Shown: positions 2,264-47,742 of the stretch, one piece after another
Position numbering within the stretch: position 1 is the first letter of the stretch
How the letters are laid out: each line of letters begins with the position of its first letter
Assembly (NCBI GenBank): GCA_964531405.1
Contig: CAZHHK010000002.1
Span: 1 to 54,529 of the forward strand
Origin: an uncultured Spirochaetales bacterium
Lineage (GTDB): Bacteria; Spirochaetota; GWE2-31-10; JAFGQB01
Direction of reading: 5' to 3'
DNA: 54,529 nt
The notes under the pieces: generated by a model
Seen by the model: only the letters and a program-made list of their open reading frames with translations
What the model was told of the DNA's origin: nothing
Database searches by the model: none
Translations under genes and position numbers: made by a program

Positions 2264-3154
2264 TTGAAACAAACAACAGCAGGAGAGACTGCCATGAACA
2301 ATAATATTAATTTGATGATGTCAATGGGATTGATTGAAATCTGTGGCACAACTTTTTCGATTATAAAAAAAAATTTTATTTTTTTACTTAAGCTTTTTCT
2401 TGTGTTTATAATTCCTCTGGCTATACTTATAGTATTTTCTGTTTTTGAAGCAATTAAATTCAACGAAATCATACAGGCAGATCCTAATGATCCAAAAGCT
2501 TATGTTTCTTTTTTTTCTCTCATAACCATGCTTGTATTATTTGGGGCAGTTAATCTAATTTATAAAAGCAGTCTTGTAATAACAGCAAAACGCATAGTTT
2601 TAGATGAATACTTATCTCTAGAAAAAATAATTATTTCTTCACTAAAATCTTTTTTGTTTTTATTCCTGACATGCTTAATAGGCAACATACTTATATCTTT
2701 AGGATTATTGTTTTTTATACTTCCCGGGATTTTCTTAATAGTTGCATTCTTATATATACCCCAGGTTTATTTTATTGAAAATAAAAATTTGATTTTAAAT
2801 ATAAGTAAGAGTTTCATTATGGGAATGAAATCTTTTATCACAGTTTTTTTGATACCTATTTTTTTATATATGACTTATGCCGGATCTGTATTACTTTTTA
2901 TGAGCTTTTTTAGCTCAGATTTTATAATGAAGCTGTTTACCGGAGAAAGTATCCCGGCAGATAAGATAGGCTATTTTTCAAAAAGCCTCTCCTATAAATC
3001 ATTTCTCATTAGTCAGCTTGCCGTATTCTTCATTTTGTTTTATTTCTTCTTTACCTTTGTACAGATAGCTGTTACTTTGAAATACTTAAATGTTAAAACA
3101 GTTGAAGAAGGACGTCTTGAAAGTAATGAGGTTAAAAATCAAGGAAGCCAATAA
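2264..3154 (+). CDS. Multi-pass integral membrane protein, function unknown
   Basis: 296-aa ORF with at least 5-6 hydrophobic segments. An alternative start is at M11 (2294). Its 3' end overlaps the convergent udp gene by 16 nt. Confidence 0.5.
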   Translation: MKQTTAGETAMNNNINLMMSMGLIEICGTTFSIIKKNFIFLLKLFLVFIIPLAILIVFSVFEAIKFNEIIQADPNDPKAYVSFFSLITMLVLFGAVNLIYKSSLVITAKRIVLDEYLSLEKIIISSLKSFLFLFLTCLIGNILISLGLLFFILPGIFLIVAFLYIPQVYFIENKNLILNISKSFIMGMKSFITVFLIPIFLYMTYAGSVLLFMSFFSSDFIMKLFTGESIPADKIGYFSKSLSYKSFLISQLAVFFILFYFFFTFVQIAVTLKYLNVKTVEEGRLESNEVKNQGSQ

Positions 3155-29615: not shown

Positions 29616-32600
29616 TTATTTTAATTTATTATATCTTGAATCATATAACTTTTTTATTTTATTTCTGTCAAATGAAAGTTTTTGAAATAAATCTTTATCA
29701 TCATTTATAATAGTTGCTATTTGTTTAATCTCATGGCATAAATTCAACAAATTTTTCCTGTTTAAATCTGAATTGCCAAAATAATTTTTACTTATCGCCA
29801 TTAGATCCTCAAGAGTTTCACTGGATTTAATAAGCCTTTCAAGTTTTTTATTTATTTCCTTTTCGGCAATACTCAATACTTCTCTCTGATTTTTATTGAT
29901 AAAAGCCCTGCTATTTTTCATTATGCTATCTACTTTAGCATCGTTTTTCTTTTTGTCAGGCGGTTTAAGCCGAGGCATTTCTTTTTTCTTTATATTTTCA
30001 GATACTCTTTGTTGAATTTTATTTTCTTTAGGCTTTTCATGTTTTTCTTTAACGGATTCCTTATCAGATACAAGACTATTCAAAACTCCACCGGTTTTAT
30101 TCAAACTGTATTTATCAAGATTGTAATTGAGTTTTCTAAATTCCGTTTCATCCTTGACCCCCAGGAATTCAAATATCTCTTTTTTAGTTTTAAATTTTTT
30201 TATAAACTCATTGAGTTTCGCATAAAATATCGATCTATCGTTTTGTGGAATCAAATTGGAATTAACTAAAAAATTTATAAAACCTCTGCCTATAAAAGTA
30301 CTTCCATCATAAGTGAATATTTTGCCTTCATCATAAAGCCTTTTTATAATGCTTTTTCTTTTTTCAACAGAATATTCTGTTTCATCCATTTTATTTGCTC
30401 TTATTATATCCAGCATGAATAAATGCGGTTTTACAAATCTGTTTGAAGTGATTAAAGCTTGTTCTATTGGAGATAATTCAGGCTGCTCCGGTTTTTCTTC
30501 TGTATGCTGTTCATTGAATTTTATATCATTTGATGAATCAGCAGGAATAGAATTCTTATATTCACCAATATTTACATGTCCCTCATTTTTTGTGTTTTTA
30601 TTTTTTGTTTCTACTTCTATTTCATTAAATTGCTCTTGTTTAATTTCGGGATTATTGTTTTCATAAACAATTTCTTTGTCATTAAATGTTTCTTCAATTA
30701 CTGCTTCATTATGAGCAGGCTTTTCATTAGTTATATTTGCTTTCTCATTTTTAATCTTTTTTAAATTATCTTTTGCTTGATTATATTTTACCATTTTGAC
30801 TATAATATTTTTTAAAACGATTTTATATTTATCCTCAAGATTCAATTTATTTACAAGGTCATAAAACTCAGAGTCTTTTGCTTTTGATTCTGCCGAGATT
30901 TTTGTCAGATAGTCATCCAGCATATTTAATTTGCTTTTTAAAAATTCATTGTTTATTCTGGTTAAAAAATTATTTTTTAATTCTGTAAGAACATTACTGA
31001 TATTGATTGTATTTAAATAAACAATGATGCTTCCTATCCCCTTTGCTTTACCTAAATCCTCGGTTTTTTTTGTTTTTAGTTCTTCATCATAAATTTTAGA
31101 TTCTTTATCCCAGATTTCTTTAATTTTATTGGTTATGTTTCTTATGTTTAAAATATTTTCCGGACTTAATGTTTTTTCTAAAAATTTTATATTTTCTTCA
31201 GGGTCTTTGCCGTTCATCGCAAGATTAAAAACAGAATTATTTATAGATTCTAAAAGATTGTGTACATCAAGATTCAAGGTATCTTCCCTAAAAACTGGAA
31301 GGATTTCTTCTGATATTATTCTTGGGACGGCTTCGGGATAACATGTAGCAAGATATGCTAACAACTCGCTAATTTTATCTTCTTTCTTTTTATTTTTGTT
31401 TTCATATATTGAATGCGCCTTCTCTTTAATCTTTTTAATATTTTCTTTATTCTTTTCTTTTGCTTTTTCTTCTAGTTTTTGTATGATTTTTTTTCTCTTT
31501 TTTATATCTTCAATAATTGTCTGTTCGGCGATTATTTCCTGCAAGGACTTATGAATCATGGCTGGCTTTGATTTATTAAGGTTTTTAATTTCTTCGGCAG
31601 TAAATCCTTTTTCACTATCATCACTAAAATTTAAAACTTTTGGACCGTCTGTGCTTTTTTTAATTTCATCATAGTCGTTATTTAGATTAAAATTATCTAA
31701 CCGTTCAATATTATTTTTGATTTTTTCAGGTATGATTTCAAAAGTAGGTTCGTTTTTTGATAAATCTGAAGTCTCGGTAATTTCTTCTTTTACAAAATGA
31801 GACTCATTTTTATTTTCTGTTGTCTTGTTGTCATTTAAATCATTATCATAAATTAATTCATCGGTATAACTATCGCTTTTATCAGTAGATTTTTTTCTTA
31901 AATCCTCAATATATTTATTTATAATGTTATTTGTTATTTCAAATTTTTCTTTATATTTAATGACATTTTCATCATCAGATGATTTGAATCTTTCAAGATA
32001 TTTTATTTTTATATCATCTGATTTATCCTGATATAGTATCGCAAGAGAATTATAAGCGATCATTTCATCAGTAATATTTAATTTGTCTTTTAAAAATATA
32101 TTATTATCATCAGATTTTGCAATCTTTAACAGATAAAGAAAATTTTTTTTGTCCTGCATTTTAATAGTATATCTGCCGGATAACGACTTTAGCCTTTCTG
32201 CCGGATTATTTGTATCTGTGGCAAATAGATAAAACAGTAATTTTCTTTTTGACTGAAGTAATTTATCACCATCTTTATCGTTATCAATCTGGTATTTAAT
32301 GAAGCTCTGTCTGTTATTGGGTAATTCCATTACTTTTTCAGCCAGCTCTACTATATCTTTTATAATTTCGATTTTTTTATGTAATATTTTGTTTATCTTT
32401 TCTTCTGCTTTGTTATCCAGATAGTCTTTACATTTTTCATATTTTGACCAATTTTGTCTCGTCTTAATCCAACTTAATTGTTCATCATCTGTTTTATTGC
32501 TCAATTGTGAATCAATGAATTCTTCATTTATATCTTCCTCGGTTATTCCAAGCTCTTCTTTTAAATTGTGGAGAAGATTGTTAATCACATGTTTAATCTG

Positions 32601-35549
32601 TTTGAACTCAGGGTCGTTGAGTTTTTCTTTTAAATATCTTTGTTTGTCTTTTGATTTATCAAGACCATCCAAAAGTTTGTGGATCAAACCTCCTTCATGG
32701 CTCTGTATAGTCTTAAATCTTTCAATTTCTTTATTTAAAAATTCAACTATATGATTTTTGTCTTTATATTCATTTTGGATCCAGTCTTCAATCATTGTCG
32801 TTTTTGCTTCAATTGTATAAAGCGGCTCGACTTCTTTTTTTATCCTTCTTACTACATCAACAATTTCAGAAAGTTTTGTTTTTGTGTTATCATCATTAAT
32901 CGATTTTACAGCTATTATAAAACCTTTTTCTTTCCTGTCATAATCGTAATCACTCTCATTAAATATGTTTTCTAAAGAATTTAATTTTTCTTCATCACTT
33001 TCGTTTTCTTTCATTATTTTATTTATGAATGCATCCGGTTTTCCGTCTGCTATAAGTTCATCTATTTTTTTTAGTTTATCGATATTCTGGTTTATGCCTT
33101 CAATCAGATAGTTTGCATTTCCTGCAAGCTCGACTGACTCATCTGTATTTTCCATTTTAAATAGAGATATATCTTCATAAACATCTTCAATGATTAACTC
33201 AAGATCATCGGTAGATACATCCCTATTATTGACATTGTGCGATATATCGCTGAGTTTGTATTCGACAGCTTCTTTTTTATATTCATCTTTTTGAGGCTGT
33301 TTGACGCCCAGAAGCTCCGCAACATTTATTAATGAAAGTTCGCCATCTTCGAATTTCTGTATTGAATCAATAATTTCATCGTTTACCTTTGGAAGTTTTT
33401 CCCTGTAATTTGCTACATTACGATTTATTATTGAAACATAATTATTTATCTTTTGTGACAAAGCCGGCTCATATATAAATAAATCTTCTATATCGCTTTT
33501 TATACTTGCAAATAACGCTATTTGATTGTCTACAGGGAGTTTTTTTACTTTATCATATATTTCATTAAAATGATCTCTTATCAGTATTCTTTCCATATTT
33601 TTTACAACACCAAATATTCCCCTGTATCTTGGATCTTTGGATAGCCTTTGGAGCTCAAGGATTTTCTCGGCACTGTTTCTACATTTTCCCAATTTTTCCT
33701 GCATAAATTTAAGTTTTTTTGTACTTTGAGAATGAACGCTTCTTAAATGACTTTTCATATTGATTACTTTTTTTGTAAGGATTGAGTTTTTACCGATTTT
33801 TAAAGACAAACGGTTTGCCAGATCATCCAGATATTCCTCGCTGGCGATCATTCCTAAATTTTTTTCAATGTATTTCACTTTTAAAGTAATTAATCCTAAA
33901 GCCCTACCATAGTCCATATTATACAAAATGTCTTCAACTTCATTAAAATACTCTTCAAATCTTGAATCAAAATTAATCGTATTTATGACATCCATTTTAA
34001 TTATTTCAGGAAGACTTTCAATTTTGCTTTTTAAATTTTCGATTTTACCAGTTGTTTCAAATTCATCATTAATTTGATTAAAAAAAATATTTGCCTGCAC
34101 TATATCATTTGAAAGATCCTCCTCGTTTTTATCTGCTTGATTGCCGGCTAGTAAATTGAATAAAAACAAAAATTTATCCAATATATCATACATATGATTT
34201 TTAAAATTTTCGTCCTGAATGGATTTTAAATTTTTATTTTTAAAAATTTCAAGAAATTTAATTTTGTCATCAATCGATTTTATGTTATGGAGATTATTTA
34301 TTATTTCATTTATTATCTCTACTTCCTTTTGAAGGTCATACTTCAAATATAAATAATATATAAAAAAATCATCGAATACAAGAAGTATCCCTTTTCTGCC
34401 AGTTTTCTTTATTTGGGGGATTTCAAAAAAATTTAAATAAGCTTTTTTTAAAATTTCTGTTGAAATATTATCTGTATTAATAAGAGAAGACAGTTTCAAA
34501 TTATTTATGTCAATGTTTTTAAAAGTCTCAGTTATCTGAATAAAAATTTTTTTTATTATTTCCTTTACTATATATTCCTTAACATTCGCAACAATTGTTT
34601 TATATCTACCCTGTTGCAAACCGTGATACCATGCAGAATAATGTGCTAATTTATTTGTGAATTTAAGTTTTTTTTTGATTTCCAACCATTTTTTTGGGAG
34701 CACTACATTCCTATATTCCTGAGATTTACTCAAAAGATAATCAACGTCATTTTTGTAGATTCCATCATCATTATTCTCCTGAATATATTTTACAAAATTT
34801 CTTTTCCCTTCCATTATTTGTATACTGTTAAAAATATCCATCAAGGCAACCGATACTTTTGTTGAAATTTTTTTTTCATTTTCTTCTATATCTTCATATA
34901 TATTACTTATATCTCCATTTAAAATTTTATTTTCCGTTGCATGAATTATATCGTTTACGGATTTATCATTCTCAAGATTCTTAAAGAATTTGCTAATTAT
35001 TGGATGAAGATTATTCAATCCTGCATCAAATTTAAACAAATCTTCAAGATTTTTATAAATTATTTTGTTGTTTTCTATTAAAAAGGAATTCTTTGCTAAA
35101 ATATCTTTTAATGATTCTACATTATAATTACTTTCTTTTATTAATTCGTTTATAATCTCAGCTTGCATTATATCCATATAAAACGTTCTATATTTCTCAA
35201 ATTTATTTGCAGCCAATTTTAATACTTCTTTCCTTAAAAGATCTTCTTTTTTTTCTCTTAAAGGATTTAAAATATTTCTTACTTCATTGTAATTATTTTT
35301 AAATTTTTTAAGATTCATGACTAATTTGTTTTTTTTTCTGATAAAATTTCTTACATATTTATTTGCGACATTTTCTTTATTGTAAAAATAAAGTGAAAAT
35401 TCATATTTTTTTGAATCATTTGGAAGAAATTTCTGGATATTATCTACATTTATAGGTTTAGGCAAATCTCTTACGAATTGTTTTCTTGCAACAGCAGAAT
35501 TTATTGATATAAAATCATTTGCTATTTTTTTTTCTTCAGCCGAGTTCAT
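29616..35549 (-). CDS. Giant (1977 aa) K/E/N/I-rich, predominantly helical cytoplasmic protein of unknown function
   Basis: An uninterrupted 5.9-kb ORF in a stop-rich AT background. It has no signal peptide, TM segment or Walker motif, and contains long coiled-coil-like stretches. A more globular segment near the C-terminus reads ...FVKPHLFMLDIIRANKMDETEYSVEKRKSIIKRLYDEGKIFTYDGSTFIGRGFINFL.... Confidence 0.7.
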   Translation of the reverse strand: MNSAEEKKIANDFISINSAVARKQFVRDLPKPINVDNIQKFLPNDSKKYEFSLYFYNKENVANKYVRNFIRKKNKLVMNLKKFKNNYNEVRNILNPLREKKEDLLRKEVLKLAANKFEKYRTFYMDIMQAEIINELIKESNYNVESLKDILAKNSFLIENNKIIYKNLEDLFKFDAGLNNLHPIISKFFKNLENDKSVNDIIHATENKILNGDISNIYEDIEENEKKISTKVSVALMDIFNSIQIMEGKRNFVKYIQENNDDGIYKNDVDYLLSKSQEYRNVVLPKKWLEIKKKLKFTNKLAHYSAWYHGLQQGRYKTIVANVKEYIVKEIIKKIFIQITETFKNIDINNLKLSSLINTDNISTEILKKAYLNFFEIPQIKKTGRKGILLVFDDFFIYYLYLKYDLQKEVEIINEIINNLHNIKSIDDKIKFLEIFKNKNLKSIQDENFKNHMYDILDKFLFLFNLLAGNQADKNEEDLSNDIVQANIFFNQINDEFETTGKIENLKSKIESLPEIIKMDVINTINFDSRFEEYFNEVEDILYNMDYGRALGLITLKVKYIEKNLGMIASEEYLDDLANRLSLKIGKNSILTKKVINMKSHLRSVHSQSTKKLKFMQEKLGKCRNSAEKILELQRLSKDPRYRGIFGVVKNMERILIRDHFNEIYDKVKKLPVDNQIALFASIKSDIEDLFIYEPALSQKINNYVSIINRNVANYREKLPKVNDEIIDSIQKFEDGELSLINVAELLGVKQPQKDEYKKEAVEYKLSDISHNVNNRDVSTDDLELIIEDVYEDISLFKMENTDESVELAGNANYLIEGINQNIDKLKKIDELIADGKPDAFINKIMKENESDEEKLNSLENIFNESDYDYDRKEKGFIIAVKSINDDNTKTKLSEIVDVVRRIKKEVEPLYTIEAKTTMIEDWIQNEYKDKNHIVEFLNKEIERFKTIQSHEGGLIHKLLDGLDKSKDKQRYLKEKLNDPEFKQIKHVINNLLHNLKEELGITEEDINEEFIDSQLSNKTDDEQLSWIKTRQNWSKYEKCKDYLDNKAEEKINKILHKKIEIIKDIVELAEKVMELPNNRQSFIKYQIDNDKDGDKLLQSKRKLLFYLFATDTNNPAERLKSLSGRYTIKMQDKKNFLYLLKIAKSDDNNIFLKDKLNITDEMIAYNSLAILYQDKSDDIKIKYLERFKSSDDENVIKYKEKFEITNNIINKYIEDLRKKSTDKSDSYTDELIYDNDLNDNKTTENKNESHFVKEEITETSDLSKNEPTFEIIPEKIKNNIERLDNFNLNNDYDEIKKSTDGPKVLNFSDDSEKGFTAEEIKNLNKSKPAMIHKSLQEIIAEQTIIEDIKKRKKIIQKLEEKAKEKNKENIKKIKEKAHSIYENKNKKKEDKISELLAYLATCYPEAVPRIISEEILPVFREDTLNLDVHNLLESINNSVFNLAMNGKDPEENIKFLEKTLSPENILNIRNITNKIKEIWDKESKIYDEELKTKKTEDLGKAKGIGSIIVYLNTINISNVLTELKNNFLTRINNEFLKSKLNMLDDYLTKISAESKAKDSEFYDLVNKLNLEDKYKIVLKNIIVKMVKYNQAKDNLKKIKNEKANITNEKPAHNEAVIEETFNDKEIVYENNNPEIKQEQFNEIEVETKNKNTKNEGHVNIGEYKNSIPADSSNDIKFNEQHTEEKPEQPELSPIEQALITSNRFVKPHLFMLDIIRANKMDETEYSVEKRKSIIKRLYDEGKIFTYDGSTFIGRGFINFLVNSNLIPQNDRSIFYAKLNEFIKKFKTKKEIFEFLGVKDETEFRKLNYNLDKYSLNKTGGVLNSLVSDKESVKEKHEKPKENKIQQRVSENIKKKEMPRLKPPDKKKNDAKVDSIMKNSRAFINKNQREVLSIAEKEINKKLERLIKSSETLEDLMAISKNYFGNSDLNRKNLLNLCHEIKQIATIINDDKDLFQKLSFDRNKIKKLYDSRYNKLK

Positions 35550-38624: not shown

Positions 38625-38825
38625 AAAATTAATATATTATAAAGGAAAAATAATTTTAAATCTAGATTAAATTTAGTTAAATTCCCTAAATTTGAGCTCT
38701 GTCCCCTCATTGATAGACGATTATGGTGAATTTTAAAAATACAGAATCATTTACCCTTGACAAATCTTTACATTTTATATATTCTAAAATCTTCTAAAAA
38801 AGCTATTATTTTGGAGAAATATTTA

Positions 38826-39617
38826 ATGGAAATGCAAGAAATTTATACAAATTTAGTCGATTTGCAGAAAATTTTAACTGAAAGATTCAAACTTGAAGAA
38901 AAAATGGAAGAATTGCCAAGAATGCTCTCTTCAAGAATTGAAGTTTTAAATAGATTGAAAAAATCCTATCTTGCTAAACATGAACAGTTTAAAAAACTTG
39001 AAGAAAATATTTTTTCTCATCAAAAAATGATGGGTGAATTATCTCTTCATCAAAAAAGACTTTCAGAAAAAGTAAAAGCGATTTCAACCCAAAGAGAATA
39101 TGAAGCTTTAGACAATGAAATTGCAATGGCTAAAAAAAAAGAAGAAGAATACAGATTTCATCTTTTGCAGGATCAGAGAGTTATCGAAGATTTACGTGGA
39201 GCGTTAAGTAAAGATGAAATAGCAATTAAACAACAGGAAGAGGATATCGTAAAAGAAGAAGAAAGAATCAAATCCGAGTTAGATAAAATTAAAAAAGAGC
39301 ATGAGGCTTTACTAAAAAATGAAGAAAATTTGACTAAAGAAATCGATGAGAATATAAGATATAAATTTGAGAAAATAGTTAAAAATAAAGACGGAATAGG
39401 TATTGTAAGCGTAACAAAAGGATACTGTAACGGTTGTTATCTTGCCATACCTGCAGAATTTATTAATAAAATCAGAGAAAATAAAGAAATTCAGTTTTGC
39501 CCAAATTGTTCCAGAATTTTATTTTACGATGATAACCCAGAGAGTCTATTTGCCATAGATCAAATGGAAGAAGAAGATATTAATGATTTCTTTGGTGATG
39601 ACGATAATGATGAGTAG
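38826..39617 (+). CDS. COG1579-type coiled-coil protein with C-terminal C4 zinc ribbon
   Basis: The ORF track starts at TTG 38757, which is the TTGACA of a likely promoter. ATG 38826 lies 9 nt after GGAG (38813-38816). The protein has a long coiled coil, then CNGCYLAIP...FCPNCSRILF (C4 ribbon) and an acidic tail. Confidence 0.7.
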   Translation: MEMQEIYTNLVDLQKILTERFKLEEKMEELPRMLSSRIEVLNRLKKSYLAKHEQFKKLEENIFSHQKMMGELSLHQKRLSEKVKAISTQREYEALDNEIAMAKKKEEEYRFHLLQDQRVIEDLRGALSKDEIAIKQQEEDIVKEEERIKSELDKIKKEHEALLKNEENLTKEIDENIRYKFEKIVKNKDGIGIVSVTKGYCNGCYLAIPAEFINKIRENKEIQFCPNCSRILFYDDNPESLFAIDQMEEEDINDFFGDDDNDE

Positions 39618-39637: not shown

Positions 39638-40216
39638 TTGAAAATTAATGATAAAATTATTCTAAATGCACTAAAAAATGATACTGAATCCATAAAGAGA
39701 ATTGCTAACGAACTTAATATTAGTTATGAAGAATTATCTTTATACTTATCAAAGAGTAAAAAAATTAAAAAGCCAACTAATGAAACTGTTATATTTATAG
39801 ACGGAGCTTCCAGAGGCAACCCAGGCGAATCAGGTATAGGCATTAAAATAATTGAAAATAATAAGGCATTAGGGTATTATCGATATATCGGCAAAAAAAC
39901 TAATAATCAAGCTGAATACAATGCATTGATAAATGCCTTAAGGCTCATTGATAAAAATAAAAATCAGTCGATTTCGGTTTTTTCTGATTCGGAGTTATTA
40001 TGCAATCAAATTAATGGTATCTACGCTGTTAAAAACGAAGAAATTGCCAAATTATACAATGAAGCTATTAATTTGATAAAAGGTTTTAAAAATTTTAAAA
40101 TAAAACATATCCCAAGAAGTAAAAACGAAGATGCCGATAAATTGGCAAATATAGCAATAGAAAAAAAACAAAATGGTGAGATAGAGCTTGCAGTCGCCCG
40201 ACCACTAAACTTATAA
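39638..40216 (+). CDS. rnhA: Ribonuclease HI with a ~45-aa N-terminal helical extension
   Basis: 192 aa with a TTG start and no in-frame ATG before the catalytic core. Contains IFIDGASRGNPGESGIG (Asp 1), NNQAEYNALINAL (Glu), VFSDSELL (Asp) and NEDADKLAN (Asp). The last 39 nt overlap the 5' part of rnpB. Confidence 0.8.
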   Translation: MKINDKIILNALKNDTESIKRIANELNISYEELSLYLSKSKKIKKPTNETVIFIDGASRGNPGESGIGIKIIENNKALGYYRYIGKKTNNQAEYNALINALRLIDKNKNQSISVFSDSELLCNQINGIYAVKNEEIAKLYNEAINLIKGFKNFKIKHIPRSKNEDADKLANIAIEKKQNGEIELAVARPLNL

Positions 40217-40306
40217 TAATTGGCTTTTTTTAAAATTTCTGCTTTTAAATTATTAATTTAAAGCAAGAATAAACTTTAGCAAAATATTTAAAGTTTAGTG
40301 GTCGGG
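40195..40306 (+). repeat. Repeat copy 1: long AT-rich hairpin at the rnpB P3 position
   Basis: cgcccgaccactaaacttataataattggcttttttt...gcttttaaattattaatttaaagcaag...aaactttagcaaaatatttaaagtttagtggtcggg. The closing stem cccgaccactaaactt/aagtttagtggtcggg is 16 bp. The sequence is near-identical to 40488-40604. Confidence 0.85.
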
Positions 40307-40352
40307 AGGAAAGTCCGGGCTCCAAAAGACATGATGCCAGATAACTTCTGGG

Positions 40353-40462
40353 TCGAGCACTCAACTGTCTAAATTAGCATACTTATTATTTTTGTTTGAT
40401 GAATATAATCAAAAGCAAAAATGAATAAAAATATTGTTTAATATAAGCAGTTGAGTGCTCGA
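40353..40462 (+). other. Long AT-rich hairpin at the rnpB P9 position
   Basis: tcgagcactcaactg (40353-40367) pairs with cagttgagtgctcga (40448-40462) as a perfect 15-bp closing stem. It encloses an inner hairpin (tttttgtttgat...atcaaaagcaaaaa). Confidence 0.75.
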
Positions 40463-40487
40463 ACGGATAGTGCAACAGAAAATATAC

Positions 40488-40604
40488 CGCCCGACCACTA
40501 AACTTATAATAATTAGCTTTTTTTGGTATTTCTTGCTTTTAAATTATTAATTTAAAGCAAGAAAATATAAACTTTAGCAAAATATTTAAAGTTTAGTGGT
40601 CGGG
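40488..40604 (+). repeat. Repeat copy 2: long AT-rich hairpin at the rnpB P12 position
   Basis: cgcccgaccactaaacttataataattagcttttttt...cttgcttttaaattattaatttaaagcaag...aaactttagcaaaatatttaaagtttagtggtcggg. It differs from copy 1 by a few substitutions and small indels. Confidence 0.85.
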
Positions 40605-40840
40605 TAAGGGTGAAAAGGCGAGGTAAGAGCTTCACCGCATAAATGGCAACATTTATGGCACTGAAAACCCCATCAGGAGCAATATCAAGCAGGGGATGGG
40701 TAGTCTGCTCATTAATCCCCGGGTAGATAGCAATACCATTATAGCAATATAATGGATAGACAGATGACTGCTTTAAACAGAACCCGGCTTACATGTTCTA
40801 TCTCTTTTTTTATAAATTTTATACTTGCCATTAGTTAAGT

Positions 40841-46620: not shown

Positions 46621-47742
46621 ATGTCAAAAAAGGTTTCAGGCGAGAGATTTACAATCACTTATAAATTGACAGGCTGTGAAAAAGATGCTTTGTCTCTCGC
46701 AAAAGATATATGCATAGAACAAACAGTTGAATTCCCTGAAGATTTGATAAAGGATGATTTTATCAGAAATAATATTTTCGGACGAATAGAATCATTTAAA
46801 AAAAATAATGAAAATACATTTACTGCCGAGATAAGCTTTGCTGTGGAGGTATCAGCTTTTGAATTCACACAGTTTATAAATGTAATCTTTGGCAACATAA
46901 GTTTAAAACCTGGAATAAGGATAGTAAATATAGAGTTTCCCGATAATTTTATTAAAAATTTTAAAGGACCGCGTTTTGGCATAACCGGAATAAGAAATAT
47001 TTTGAATATCTATGACAAACCTTTGATTGCATCTGCACTAAAGCCTATGGGAATGAATACTGATGAACTTGCGAATCTTGCTTATCTTTTTGCGAAAGGC
47101 GGGATAAATATAATCAAGGATGACCATGGATTATCAGATCAGAATTTTTCAAATTTTAAAGAAAGGGTCAGAGCTTGTTGTAAGGCTGTAAAAAAAGCTA
47201 ATATGGAAACAGGAAATAAAACTCTTTATTTCCCAAATATAACTGCACCATTTAATAAAATAATCGATAGGATAAAATTCGCAAAAGACAACGGAGCTAG
47301 CGGATTATTGATTTCACCTGCAATAACAGGGTTTGACTGTATGAAATCTATTGCTGATGATGATTCGATTGATATGCCTGTTATGAGTCATCCGGCATTC
47401 ATGGGGACATATCTGTCTGGAATATCTGGATTTAGCCATGGTGCTTTACTGGGGCAGCTTACTCGACTCGCTGGAGCCGACATAACGGTCTATCCTAATT
47501 TTGGCGGCAGATTTTCATTCACCAAAAATGAATGCCTTGATATTATTAATGGATCTACCTGCAAAATGAGTCATATAAAACCGATTTTCCCTGCCCCGGG
47601 CGGAGGCATGAATTTCTCTAATATACCAGAAATGACTTGTTTTTACGGCAAAGATGTTGTTTACCTTATGGGTGGAGGACTATTCAAACGAAGTGATGAT
47701 CTTGTTGCAAACTGTATTGAGCTTGTAAGATTGATATCCTAA
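46621..47742 (+). CDS. RuBisCO-like protein (form IV RLP), not a carboxylase
   Basis: 373 aa. PLIASALKPMGMNTDELANLAYLFAKGGINIIKDDHGLSDQNF aligns by eye with RuBisCO [44 protein letters not shown]. Lys175, Lys201 and Asp203 are kept, while Lys177 becomes Met and Glu204 becomes His. Later matches are MSHPAF, PAPGGGM and LMGGGLF. Confidence 0.8.
   Translation: MSKKVSGERFTITYKLTGCEKDALSLAKDICIEQTVEFPEDLIKDDFIRNNIFGRIESFKKNNENTFTAEISFAVEVSAFEFTQFINVIFGNISLKPGIRIVNIEFPDNFIKNFKGPRFGITGIRNILNIYDKPLIASALKPMGMNTDELANLAYLFAKGGINIIKDDHGLSDQNFSNFKERVRACCKAVKKANMETGNKTLYFPNITAPFNKIIDRIKFAKDNGASGLLISPAITGFDCMKSIADDDSIDMPVMSHPAFMGTYLSGISGFSHGALLGQLTRLAGADITVYPNFGGRFSFTKNECLDIINGSTCKMSHIKPIFPAPGGGMNFSNIPEMTCFYGKDVVYLMGGGLFKRSDDLVANCIELVRLIS

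Follow-up and report, generated by a model that had tools for sequence, protein, structure and literature searches.

A 627-nt type-A RNase P RNA gene with three long helical arms in an uncultured Spirochaetales bacterium, and a 13-bp basal helix shared with rRNA genes

The rnpB gene and its three arms

The stretch of DNA analysed here (the window) comprises 54,529 nt of a contig from an uncultured Spirochaetales bacterium (CAZHHK010000002.1) and carries on its forward strand, at positions 40178-40804, an rnpB gene for a bacterial type-A RNase P RNA of 627 nt, in which the peripheral hairpins P3, P9 and P12 are each extended to about 110 nt. The M1 RNA of Escherichia coli, a representative of the type-A family (RF00010), measures 377 nt; the RNA of the window has the same conserved regions and the same order of helices P1-P18, but it is about 250 nt longer, its P3, P9 and P12 take up ~110 nt each instead of ~15-35, and the usual short P9 hairpin with its terminal loop is absent. 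The RF00010 covariance model matched the window over its full length (model positions 1-367) with 207.2 bits, twice the family's gathering score of 100, which places the RNA in type A, and this was the only Rfam match above threshold in the 54.5 kb. Conserved regions CR-I to CR-V are all present in canonical order, with the strings GAGGAAAGUCCGGGCUCCA, ACAGAAA, GGUAAGGGUGAAA and ACAGAACCCGGCUUA recognizable in the alignment, and the set of helices P1-P18 is complete. The model match begins only at 40286, because the model cannot absorb the P3 arm, and the real 5′ end lies at 40178. Here GAGAUAGAGC (40178-40187) pairs with GUUCUAUCUC (40795-40804) to form P1, and the RNA is therefore 627 nt long; both P1 and P2 were retained in the centroid structure predicted for the whole molecule. 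The 5′ strands of the two helices (40178-40195), which pair with 40795-40804 and with about 40764-40770, are 100% identical to those of the nearest relative found (locus L011, described below). The 3′ strand of P1 is followed by a run of U (40795-40811), likely the 3′ end of the transcript as judged from sequence and fold, and a terminator scan found nothing else in the region. A weak sigma-70-like promoter candidate lies ~77 nt upstream of the gene (40073-40101) and agrees with 10 of 12 consensus positions, in an AT-rich region where many chance matches are expected.

When anchored on the conserved flanks, the three hairpins measure 109 (P3), 112 (P9) and 111 nt (P12), and the covariance-model alignment accordingly shows inserts of 100 nt in the loop of P9 and of ~91 nt in that of P12. 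Each arm folds as one long hairpin, with predicted energies of -34 to -40 kcal/mol. The P3 arm (40197-40306, ~110 nt) is closed by a basal helix of CCCGACCACUAAAC (40197-40210) with GUUUAGUGGUCGGG (40293-40306), and is homologous to the P3 arms of relatives L011 and L037. In the P9 arm (40353-40462, 110 nt) UCGAGCACUCAAC (40353-40365) pairs with GUUGAGUGCUCGA (40450-40462), and the closing stem as a whole reaches 15-16 bp with no mismatch. The basal helix of the P12 arm (40490-40604, ~115 nt) is formed by 40490-40503 with 40591-40604. The P3 and P12 arms are near-identical copies of each other, the segments 40195-40306 and 40488-40604 sharing 92.3% identity over 117 columns (blastn E = 2e-39), and the pattern of their ends, CGACCACTAAACTT...AAGTTTAGTGGTCG, occurs twice in the window and in none of 100 shuffled versions. 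No match to these window-specific ends was found in a scan of metagenome contigs, a collection apparently without this organism. The arms belong to no Rfam family, matching only plant miRNA hairpin models below threshold, and Tandem Repeats Finder revealed no tandem array in them, only a weak 19-nt repeat of 2.1 copies, so that repeats of the tandem heptanucleotide type could be set aside. A preliminary description of this DNA had already proposed the canonical type-A core with P1 and P2 pairing, the length of ~627 nt, the excess at P3, P9 and P12 with a perfect P9 closing stem and the near identity of the P3 and P12 arms, and all of these points held; the covariance-model check that it recommended placed inserts at P9 and P12, the P3 arm being the one that the model did not absorb.

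The gene was recovered with 100% identity over 633 nt in four Joint Genome Institute (JGI) metagenome assemblies and one NCBI assembly, and is not an assembly artefact, since five assemblies carry the identical sequence. A Logan contig matches the 3′ 236 nt of the gene and stops inside the P12 arm repeat. With regard to a possible second copy, this is the only Rfam rnpB match in the window, and it lies at a conserved syntenic position, orthologous to the rnpB found beside an RNase H gene in the relatives.

The arms among relatives

Relatives were obtained by fetching the DNA beside RNase H homologues, and the lengths of P3, P9 and P12 were measured in them with the same flank anchors. In L011, the nearest relative (RNase H 63% identical), the three hairpins reach 107, 119 and 85 nt, in the same order; in L037 they measure 108, 111 and 42 nt, and in L036 23, 108 and 70 nt. 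Short hairpins were found in L035 (20, 26 and 17 nt), L013 (32, 17 and 20 nt; gene cut off by the contig end), L014 (13, 14 and 37 nt; full length 362 nt) and L012 (15, 14 and 21 nt; full length 365 nt), giving ranges of 13-32, 14-26 and 17-37 nt for normal genes. Arms are thus sporadic, being present in the window, L011, L036 and L037 and absent from the other four, and this distribution of lengths indicates that the expansions characterise one small clade and affect precisely the helices P3, P9 and P12.

Comparison with L011 separates the histories of the three arms. The core is strongly conserved between the two genes, with 100% identity in P1/P2, 96% from CR-I to P8, 96% in P10/P11 and 84% in the 3′ 200 nt. 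The P9 arm is conserved like the ribozyme core (91% identity, 88.5% in its interior), and neutral sequence should be saturated at this distance, because the RNase H proteins encoded next to rnpB share just 63% identity. The P3 arms share 66% identity and their ends are clearly homologous, while the P12 arms, at 52%, are at noise level and their interiors unrelated. The P3 and P9 arms are orthologous with those of L011, and this alignment shows both to be older than the split between the two species. As the P3 arm of L011 is homologous to that of the window and its P12 interior is not, the comparison likewise shows that in the window lineage an older P12 arm was recently overwritten with a copy of the P3 arm. 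The duplication or gene conversion between peripheral helices put forward in the preliminary description is supported by these data, which add its direction, from P3 to P12. In L037 the base of P12, CCCCGCUACUAAAUUAUGA, resembles the base of its own P3, CCCCGUCCACUAAAUUAUAA, and the two cases together suggest repeated homogenisation between arms.

The length of P9 was kept at ~110 nt in four species, although L036 and L037 use another sequence family there. This separate, well-conserved family, with GCCACAGAG/CACAGAG repeats, was seen in the P9 arms of L036 (2006-2113), L037 (2091-2201) and L033 (about 2140-2250), which at ~110 nt have the same length as the P9 arms with the basal motif described below.

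Upstream, rnpB adjoins an RNase HI-family gene (39638-40216, forward strand; Pfam RNase_H and RVT_3), whose last 39 nt overlap the start of the ribozyme gene, and a Zn_ribbon_9 (CT398-like) gene (38757-39617, forward strand; Pfam). The same order of Zn-ribbon, RNase H and rnpB genes was found in L012, L033, L036 and L037, each of the relatives examined has one rnpB at the RNase H locus, and RNase H adjoins rnpB in Omnitrophota and Patescibacteria as well. A scan of genome contigs with the RNase H protein returned only four distant relatives, from these two phyla, whose rnpB is normal, and did not recover the species of the window. The overlap between the RNase HI reading frame and rnpB (40178-40216 in the window) was also observed in L011 (about 1158-1211), L035, L013, L036 and L037, and in several relatives the C-terminal GEIEL(A/T)V of RNase H is encoded by the 5′ strands of P1 and P2. 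Protein gene and ribozyme share this conserved sequence and may therefore be co-transcribed.

The basal helix in other RNAs and the surroundings of rnpB

The interiors of the arms are unrelated between sites, but their inverted-repeat ends are conserved. All arms open with one family of 13-bp helix, C-CGAGCAC-UCAAC / GUUGA-GUGCUCG-G, or with variants altered on both strands. The P9 arm of the window carries the exact CGAGCACUCAAC / GUUGAGUGCUCG, its P3 and P12 arms carry CGACCACUAAAC / GUUUAGUGGUCG, with two positions changed on both strands, and in L011 all three arms begin with CGAGCAC(U/C)CAA(C/U) and close with the complement. Among 22 instances compared, the 13 bp were never mismatched and seven positions were changed on both strands, covariation being informed only by those variants found through homology or with mismatches allowed. 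Two resemblances of the helix were considered and rejected. Its ACTCAAC and GTTGAGT fit the RYYYAAC and GTTRRRY boxes of integron attC sites, but these boxes are internal to the helix, the degenerate 7-mer match is at chance level and the context is rRNA; a tRNA minihelix (7 + 5 bp, acceptor stem plus T stem) had nothing in its support, with neither T-loop nor 3′ tail.

Public metagenome contigs were scanned for the exact 24-base helix pattern CGAGCACTCAAC-N60-90-GTTGAGTGCTCG, whose chance expectation is ~1e-13 per position, i.e., less than one match even in 1e12-1e13 bases. The pattern was found at 16 loci, all of which carry an extra C-G pair outside it, and 11 of them lie inside rRNA genes. 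Mapping on the E. coli 23S rRNA, with inspection, located these at the tips of 23S helix 63, 16S helix 26 and 5S helix IV, at 23S helix 27 (H27) and in 23S domain I. Two further loci are the rplB-rpsS and rplN-rplX spacers of ribosomal-protein operons, and the remainder fall in hairpin clusters that carry no annotation and match no Rfam family. Patescibacteria are the source of two rRNA loci, one of which comes from Ca. Wildermuthbacteria. At 23S H27 the motif replaces a native 13-bp helix of equal length and encloses the native H28-H31, with nothing inserted. Viral contigs scanned at two spacings gave 0 matches, hence no link to phages.

Several of these loci hold features of their own. At the tip of helix IV, a 5S rRNA gene (L021, 497-570, reverse strand) bears a ~75-nt hairpin built on this basal helix; we know of no report of a comparable insertion in bacterial 5S rRNA. 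The 4.1-kb Patescibacteria 23S rRNA gene of L019 (4742-8844, reverse strand) contains four additional arms, each some 100-150 nt long and located close to E. coli positions 131-177, about 540, about 1170 and 1854-1883, built on a different basal helix (GUGCUUUGCAC-like, GUGC[U/A]U[U/A/C]GCAC) with UAAAGU-rich interiors, and with this second family paralogous arms within one structural RNA gene appear as a wider phenomenon. In the 23S gene of L018 (595-4185, reverse strand), at RNA coordinates of about 660-745, stacked short helices reuse a CCGAGCAC / GUGCUCGG unit, CCGAGCACUA...UAGUGCUCUGG enclosing CCGAGCACUUAA...UUAAGUGCUUCGG, so that the unit looks locally duplicated. The loci L017 (1-330) and L020 (about 2300-2675, reverse strand) share a conserved element of three hairpins, GAACAACCGC...GCGGUUGUUC, the motif hairpin and UUAUUGUUUCG...CGAAACAAUAA, and behind them a terminator-like stem; no Rfam family matches this element, which could represent an unknown small RNA. 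The Ca. Wildermuthbacteria 23S gene with the motif at H27 also contains a group I intron (L022, 5822-6044; RF00028, 70.8 bits).

Around rnpB the window has 30% G+C and encodes ordinary functions of a free-living bacterium, among them tryptophan synthesis, IspD/IspF, GGDEF proteins, RND transporters and a RuBisCO-like protein. Its ABC-F protein has the closest named homologues in Spirochaetota metagenome-assembled genomes (53-60% identity), and the protein encoded at 50375-52843 matches the Treponema family TP_0179, which together make an uncultured host of spirochaete-like affinity probable. A 1977-aa open reading frame (ORF) spans 29616-35549 on the reverse strand, and a RuBisCO large-subunit-like gene (46621-47742, forward strand) lies beside split transketolase genes. 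Neither Pfam, applied to 37 proteins of the window, nor NCBIfam, applied to nine more, revealed an RNase III, an RnpA or a 23S intervening-sequence protein. Genes for IS110-family transposases lie on either side of the window on the same 164-kb contig (L039 8862-9941, just past 54529, and L038 17581-17955), and no link between them and the arms was found.

Origin and fate of the arms

We propose that the tips of three solvent-exposed hairpins have been replaced by ~50-bp helical rods, and that these rods would fall into a broader group of expansions at helix tips, akin to rRNA intervening sequences, whose common basal helix is found in rRNA (5S, 16S and 23S) as well as in spacers of ribosomal-protein operons. 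Copying from P3 to P12 could have proceeded by gene conversion or template switching, aided by the common inverted-repeat ends, and selection acting on the RNA may maintain the basal helix, in the simplest case as the site of a trans-acting factor, i.e., a double-strand nuclease (e.g., RNase III) or a binding protein. The locus is thus read as the organism's working type-A RNase P RNA gene, with helix-tip expansions related to rRNA intervening sequences and homogenised by gene conversion, and we regard this reading as probable. Several points weigh against it. The invariance of the helix is partly by construction, as the 16 metagenome matches were chosen by exact pattern, and the argument from the conservation of the P9 arm compares two species only. 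In the rRNA operons that bear the motif, the canonical 23S processing stems were checked and lack it, so that nothing ties the motif specifically to RNase III. Finally, the minimum free energy fold of the 627-nt RNA (-217.6 kcal/mol) differs from the ribozyme fold, pairing the 5′ strand of P3 with the 3′ strand of P12 and the 3′ strand of P3 with the 5′ strand of P12, although the centroid retains the local hairpins; two near-identical arms therefore create a competing nested structure, a cost that would favour arm removal.

Helix-tip expansions of structural RNAs are already known. Intervening sequences of 23S and 16S rRNA in Salmonella, Leptospira, Campylobacter and Coxiella are excised by RNase III with no ligation (PMC8708148; PMC11270868). 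The arms resemble them as ~100-nt stem-loops that replace conserved hairpin tips of a structural RNA gene, sporadically and on a long basal duplex; they differ in that the host gene is rnpB and not an rRNA gene, that there are three per gene and that the P9 interior is strongly conserved. Short ORF-less insertions in rRNA genes of the Candidate Phyla Radiation (CPR) were called uncharacterised and presumed to be cleaved by RNase III (Tsurumaki et al., 2024, PMC11270868). In 23S rRNA genes of Patescibacteria, hairpins are flanked by exactly the 13-bp helix of the arms, yet that study describes neither a common stem sequence nor any connection with RNase P RNA, 5S rRNA or mRNA spacers, and the host of the window is not a CPR bacterium. 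RNase P RNAs of CPR bacteria with "large extensions of helices", e.g., an extended P15, likewise have elongated peripheral helices with which standard covariance-model alignment cannot cope (Lui et al., bioRxiv 10.1101/2020.03.05.979740), unlike the window in which the arms are paralogous, share a basal motif and belong to another phylum. Our literature searches found no paralogous P3/P12 arms, no bacterial rnpB with three ~110-nt arms and no report of the helix sequence, a search by motif string returning unrelated primers only; the preliminary description likewise knew of no described rnpB with paralogous P3/P12 expansions. Tolerance of repetitive DNA in P12 of a functional RNase P RNA is nevertheless familiar from heterocyst-forming cyanobacteria, in whose rnpB Vioque reportedly described, in 1997, short tandemly repeated repetitive (STRR) heptamers; here three helices are affected and there is no tandem array.

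That the locus represents an rnpB paralogue in decay, or an error of assembly, appears very improbable and is largely refuted. The unusual length would be in keeping with it, and an internal repeat can break assemblies, as the end of the Logan contig inside the P12 arm illustrates; on the other side stand the intact conserved regions and the 207-bit score, the five independent identical assemblies, the syntenic position and the same architecture in a second species with core segments 96-100% identical. More weight attaches to the view that the arms are miniature DNA transposon copies with 13-bp terminal inverted repeats, inserted independently in rnpB and other highly transcribed genes, at loops that tolerate them. 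The preliminary description had offered a related alternative, a hairpin element colonising two or three sites, and one part of it stood: a common helix family does link all arms, rRNA genes and operon spacers, with conserved ends, variable interiors, very different hosts and paralogous arms within a single gene both in the rnpB of the window and in the 23S rRNA of L019. The IS110 transposase genes nearby on the contig might be added, although IS110 elements lack terminal inverted repeats. The behaviour of a dispersed element did not bear out. REPIN, Correia and Rickettsia palindromic elements are ~100-nt hairpins with conserved inverted ends, some of them tolerated in genes, and are high-copy, dispersed and lineage-specific, whereas here three copies lie in rnpB, the ends are common across phyla and no further arm or helix copy was found outside rnpB in the window and ~20 kb of flanks, the copy count that had been recommended thus reaching over ~74 kb around the gene; viral contigs held none either. 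There are no target-site duplications, the flanks differing on the two sides and continuing the host helix seamlessly, so that native hairpins are replaced and not interrupted. Furthermore, the arms are orthologous between species instead of being present or absent at identical ends, the supposed ends at H27 flank native rRNA with length unchanged, and the interiors are unrelated between sites, unlike typical miniature-transposon families. We consider a transposon origin improbable.

The remaining explanations concern what becomes of the arms and what recognizes their base. The arms might be true intervening sequences, cut in their basal helices by RNase III or a similar enzyme with no ligation, which would leave an RNase P RNA assembled non-covalently from four pieces of about 20, 47, 30 and 200 nt, with P1, P2, P4, P5, P7, P10 and P11 keeping them together. 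Excision would fit the likeness to 23S and 16S intervening sequences set out above and the occurrence of the same helix in CPR rRNA genes, where short ORF-less insertions are presumed to be cleaved by RNase III (PMC11270868), and in operon spacers, a frequent location of RNase III sites; it would also end the risk of P3/P12 misfolding. A P9 interior conserved like the core would, however, be unexpected in discarded RNA, the helix at H27 encloses the native H28-H31, which are not discardable, and the motif is absent from the canonical 23S processing stems. Nor do we know of any report of a naturally fragmented bacterial RNase P RNA, and excision seems to us possible but doubtful. The helix could alternatively serve for the docking of a protein that the ribosome and RNase P have in common, either as a component or as an assembly factor, the operon-spacer copies being autoregulatory mimics. 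Archaeal L7Ae would offer a precedent, its binding to kink-turns in rRNA and in RNase P RNA being documented (PMC4245976). Conservation of the sequence itself, beyond its pairing, across phyla and RNAs would agree with docking, as would the replacement of H27 with nothing inserted and the enrichment of non-rRNA copies in transcripts of the translation machinery, two of the four independent non-rRNA sites lying in the S10/spc cluster. Against this, no candidate protein was identified and nothing relevant is encoded in the window, the position of the motif in rRNA varies by organism, which is not the way of a ribosomal-protein site, it would be unusual for a perfect A-form duplex to be read by sequence, and the P3 and P12 arms of the window carry a different variant of the helix from P9. 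Docking is, in our judgement, rather unlikely.

As to the fate of the arms, excision is favoured by the likeness to rRNA intervening sequences, by the presumed RNase III fate of the CPR insertions and by the P3/P12 folding hazard; retention is favoured because the P9 arm is conserved like the core and its ~110-nt length was kept in four species. Retention appears slightly ahead, and it is more likely that the arms, at least that of P9, stay in the mature ribozyme as expansion segments than that they are discarded. Only tentatively do we suggest that the 13-bp duplex is an unrecognised portable RNA module, shared across bacteria as distant as Patescibacteria and a Spirochaetota-like lineage, which could be the site of a trans-acting nuclease or ribonucleoprotein protein, or the end of a new helix-tip-replacing element. 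If so, the rnpB of the window would encode a naturally modular ribozyme, perhaps fragmented or decorated with protein.

One exact 13-bp helix ties the arms to the "uncharacterised short insertions" of CPR rRNA genes, and it offers a searchable signature (CCGAGCACUCAAC...GUUGAGUGCUCGG and its paired variants), with a testable hypothesis of a processing or binding site for this class of elements. The copying of P3 onto P12 represents concerted evolution between helices of one essential RNA. Were the arms excised, we would know of no earlier case of a naturally fragmented bacterial RNase P RNA. Textbooks present RNase P RNA as a ribozyme of constrained size, and the 627-nt version, whose three ~50-bp rods are also conserved in another species, indicates that a bacterial RNase P RNA may be able to bear expansion segments on the scale of those in eukaryotic rRNA.

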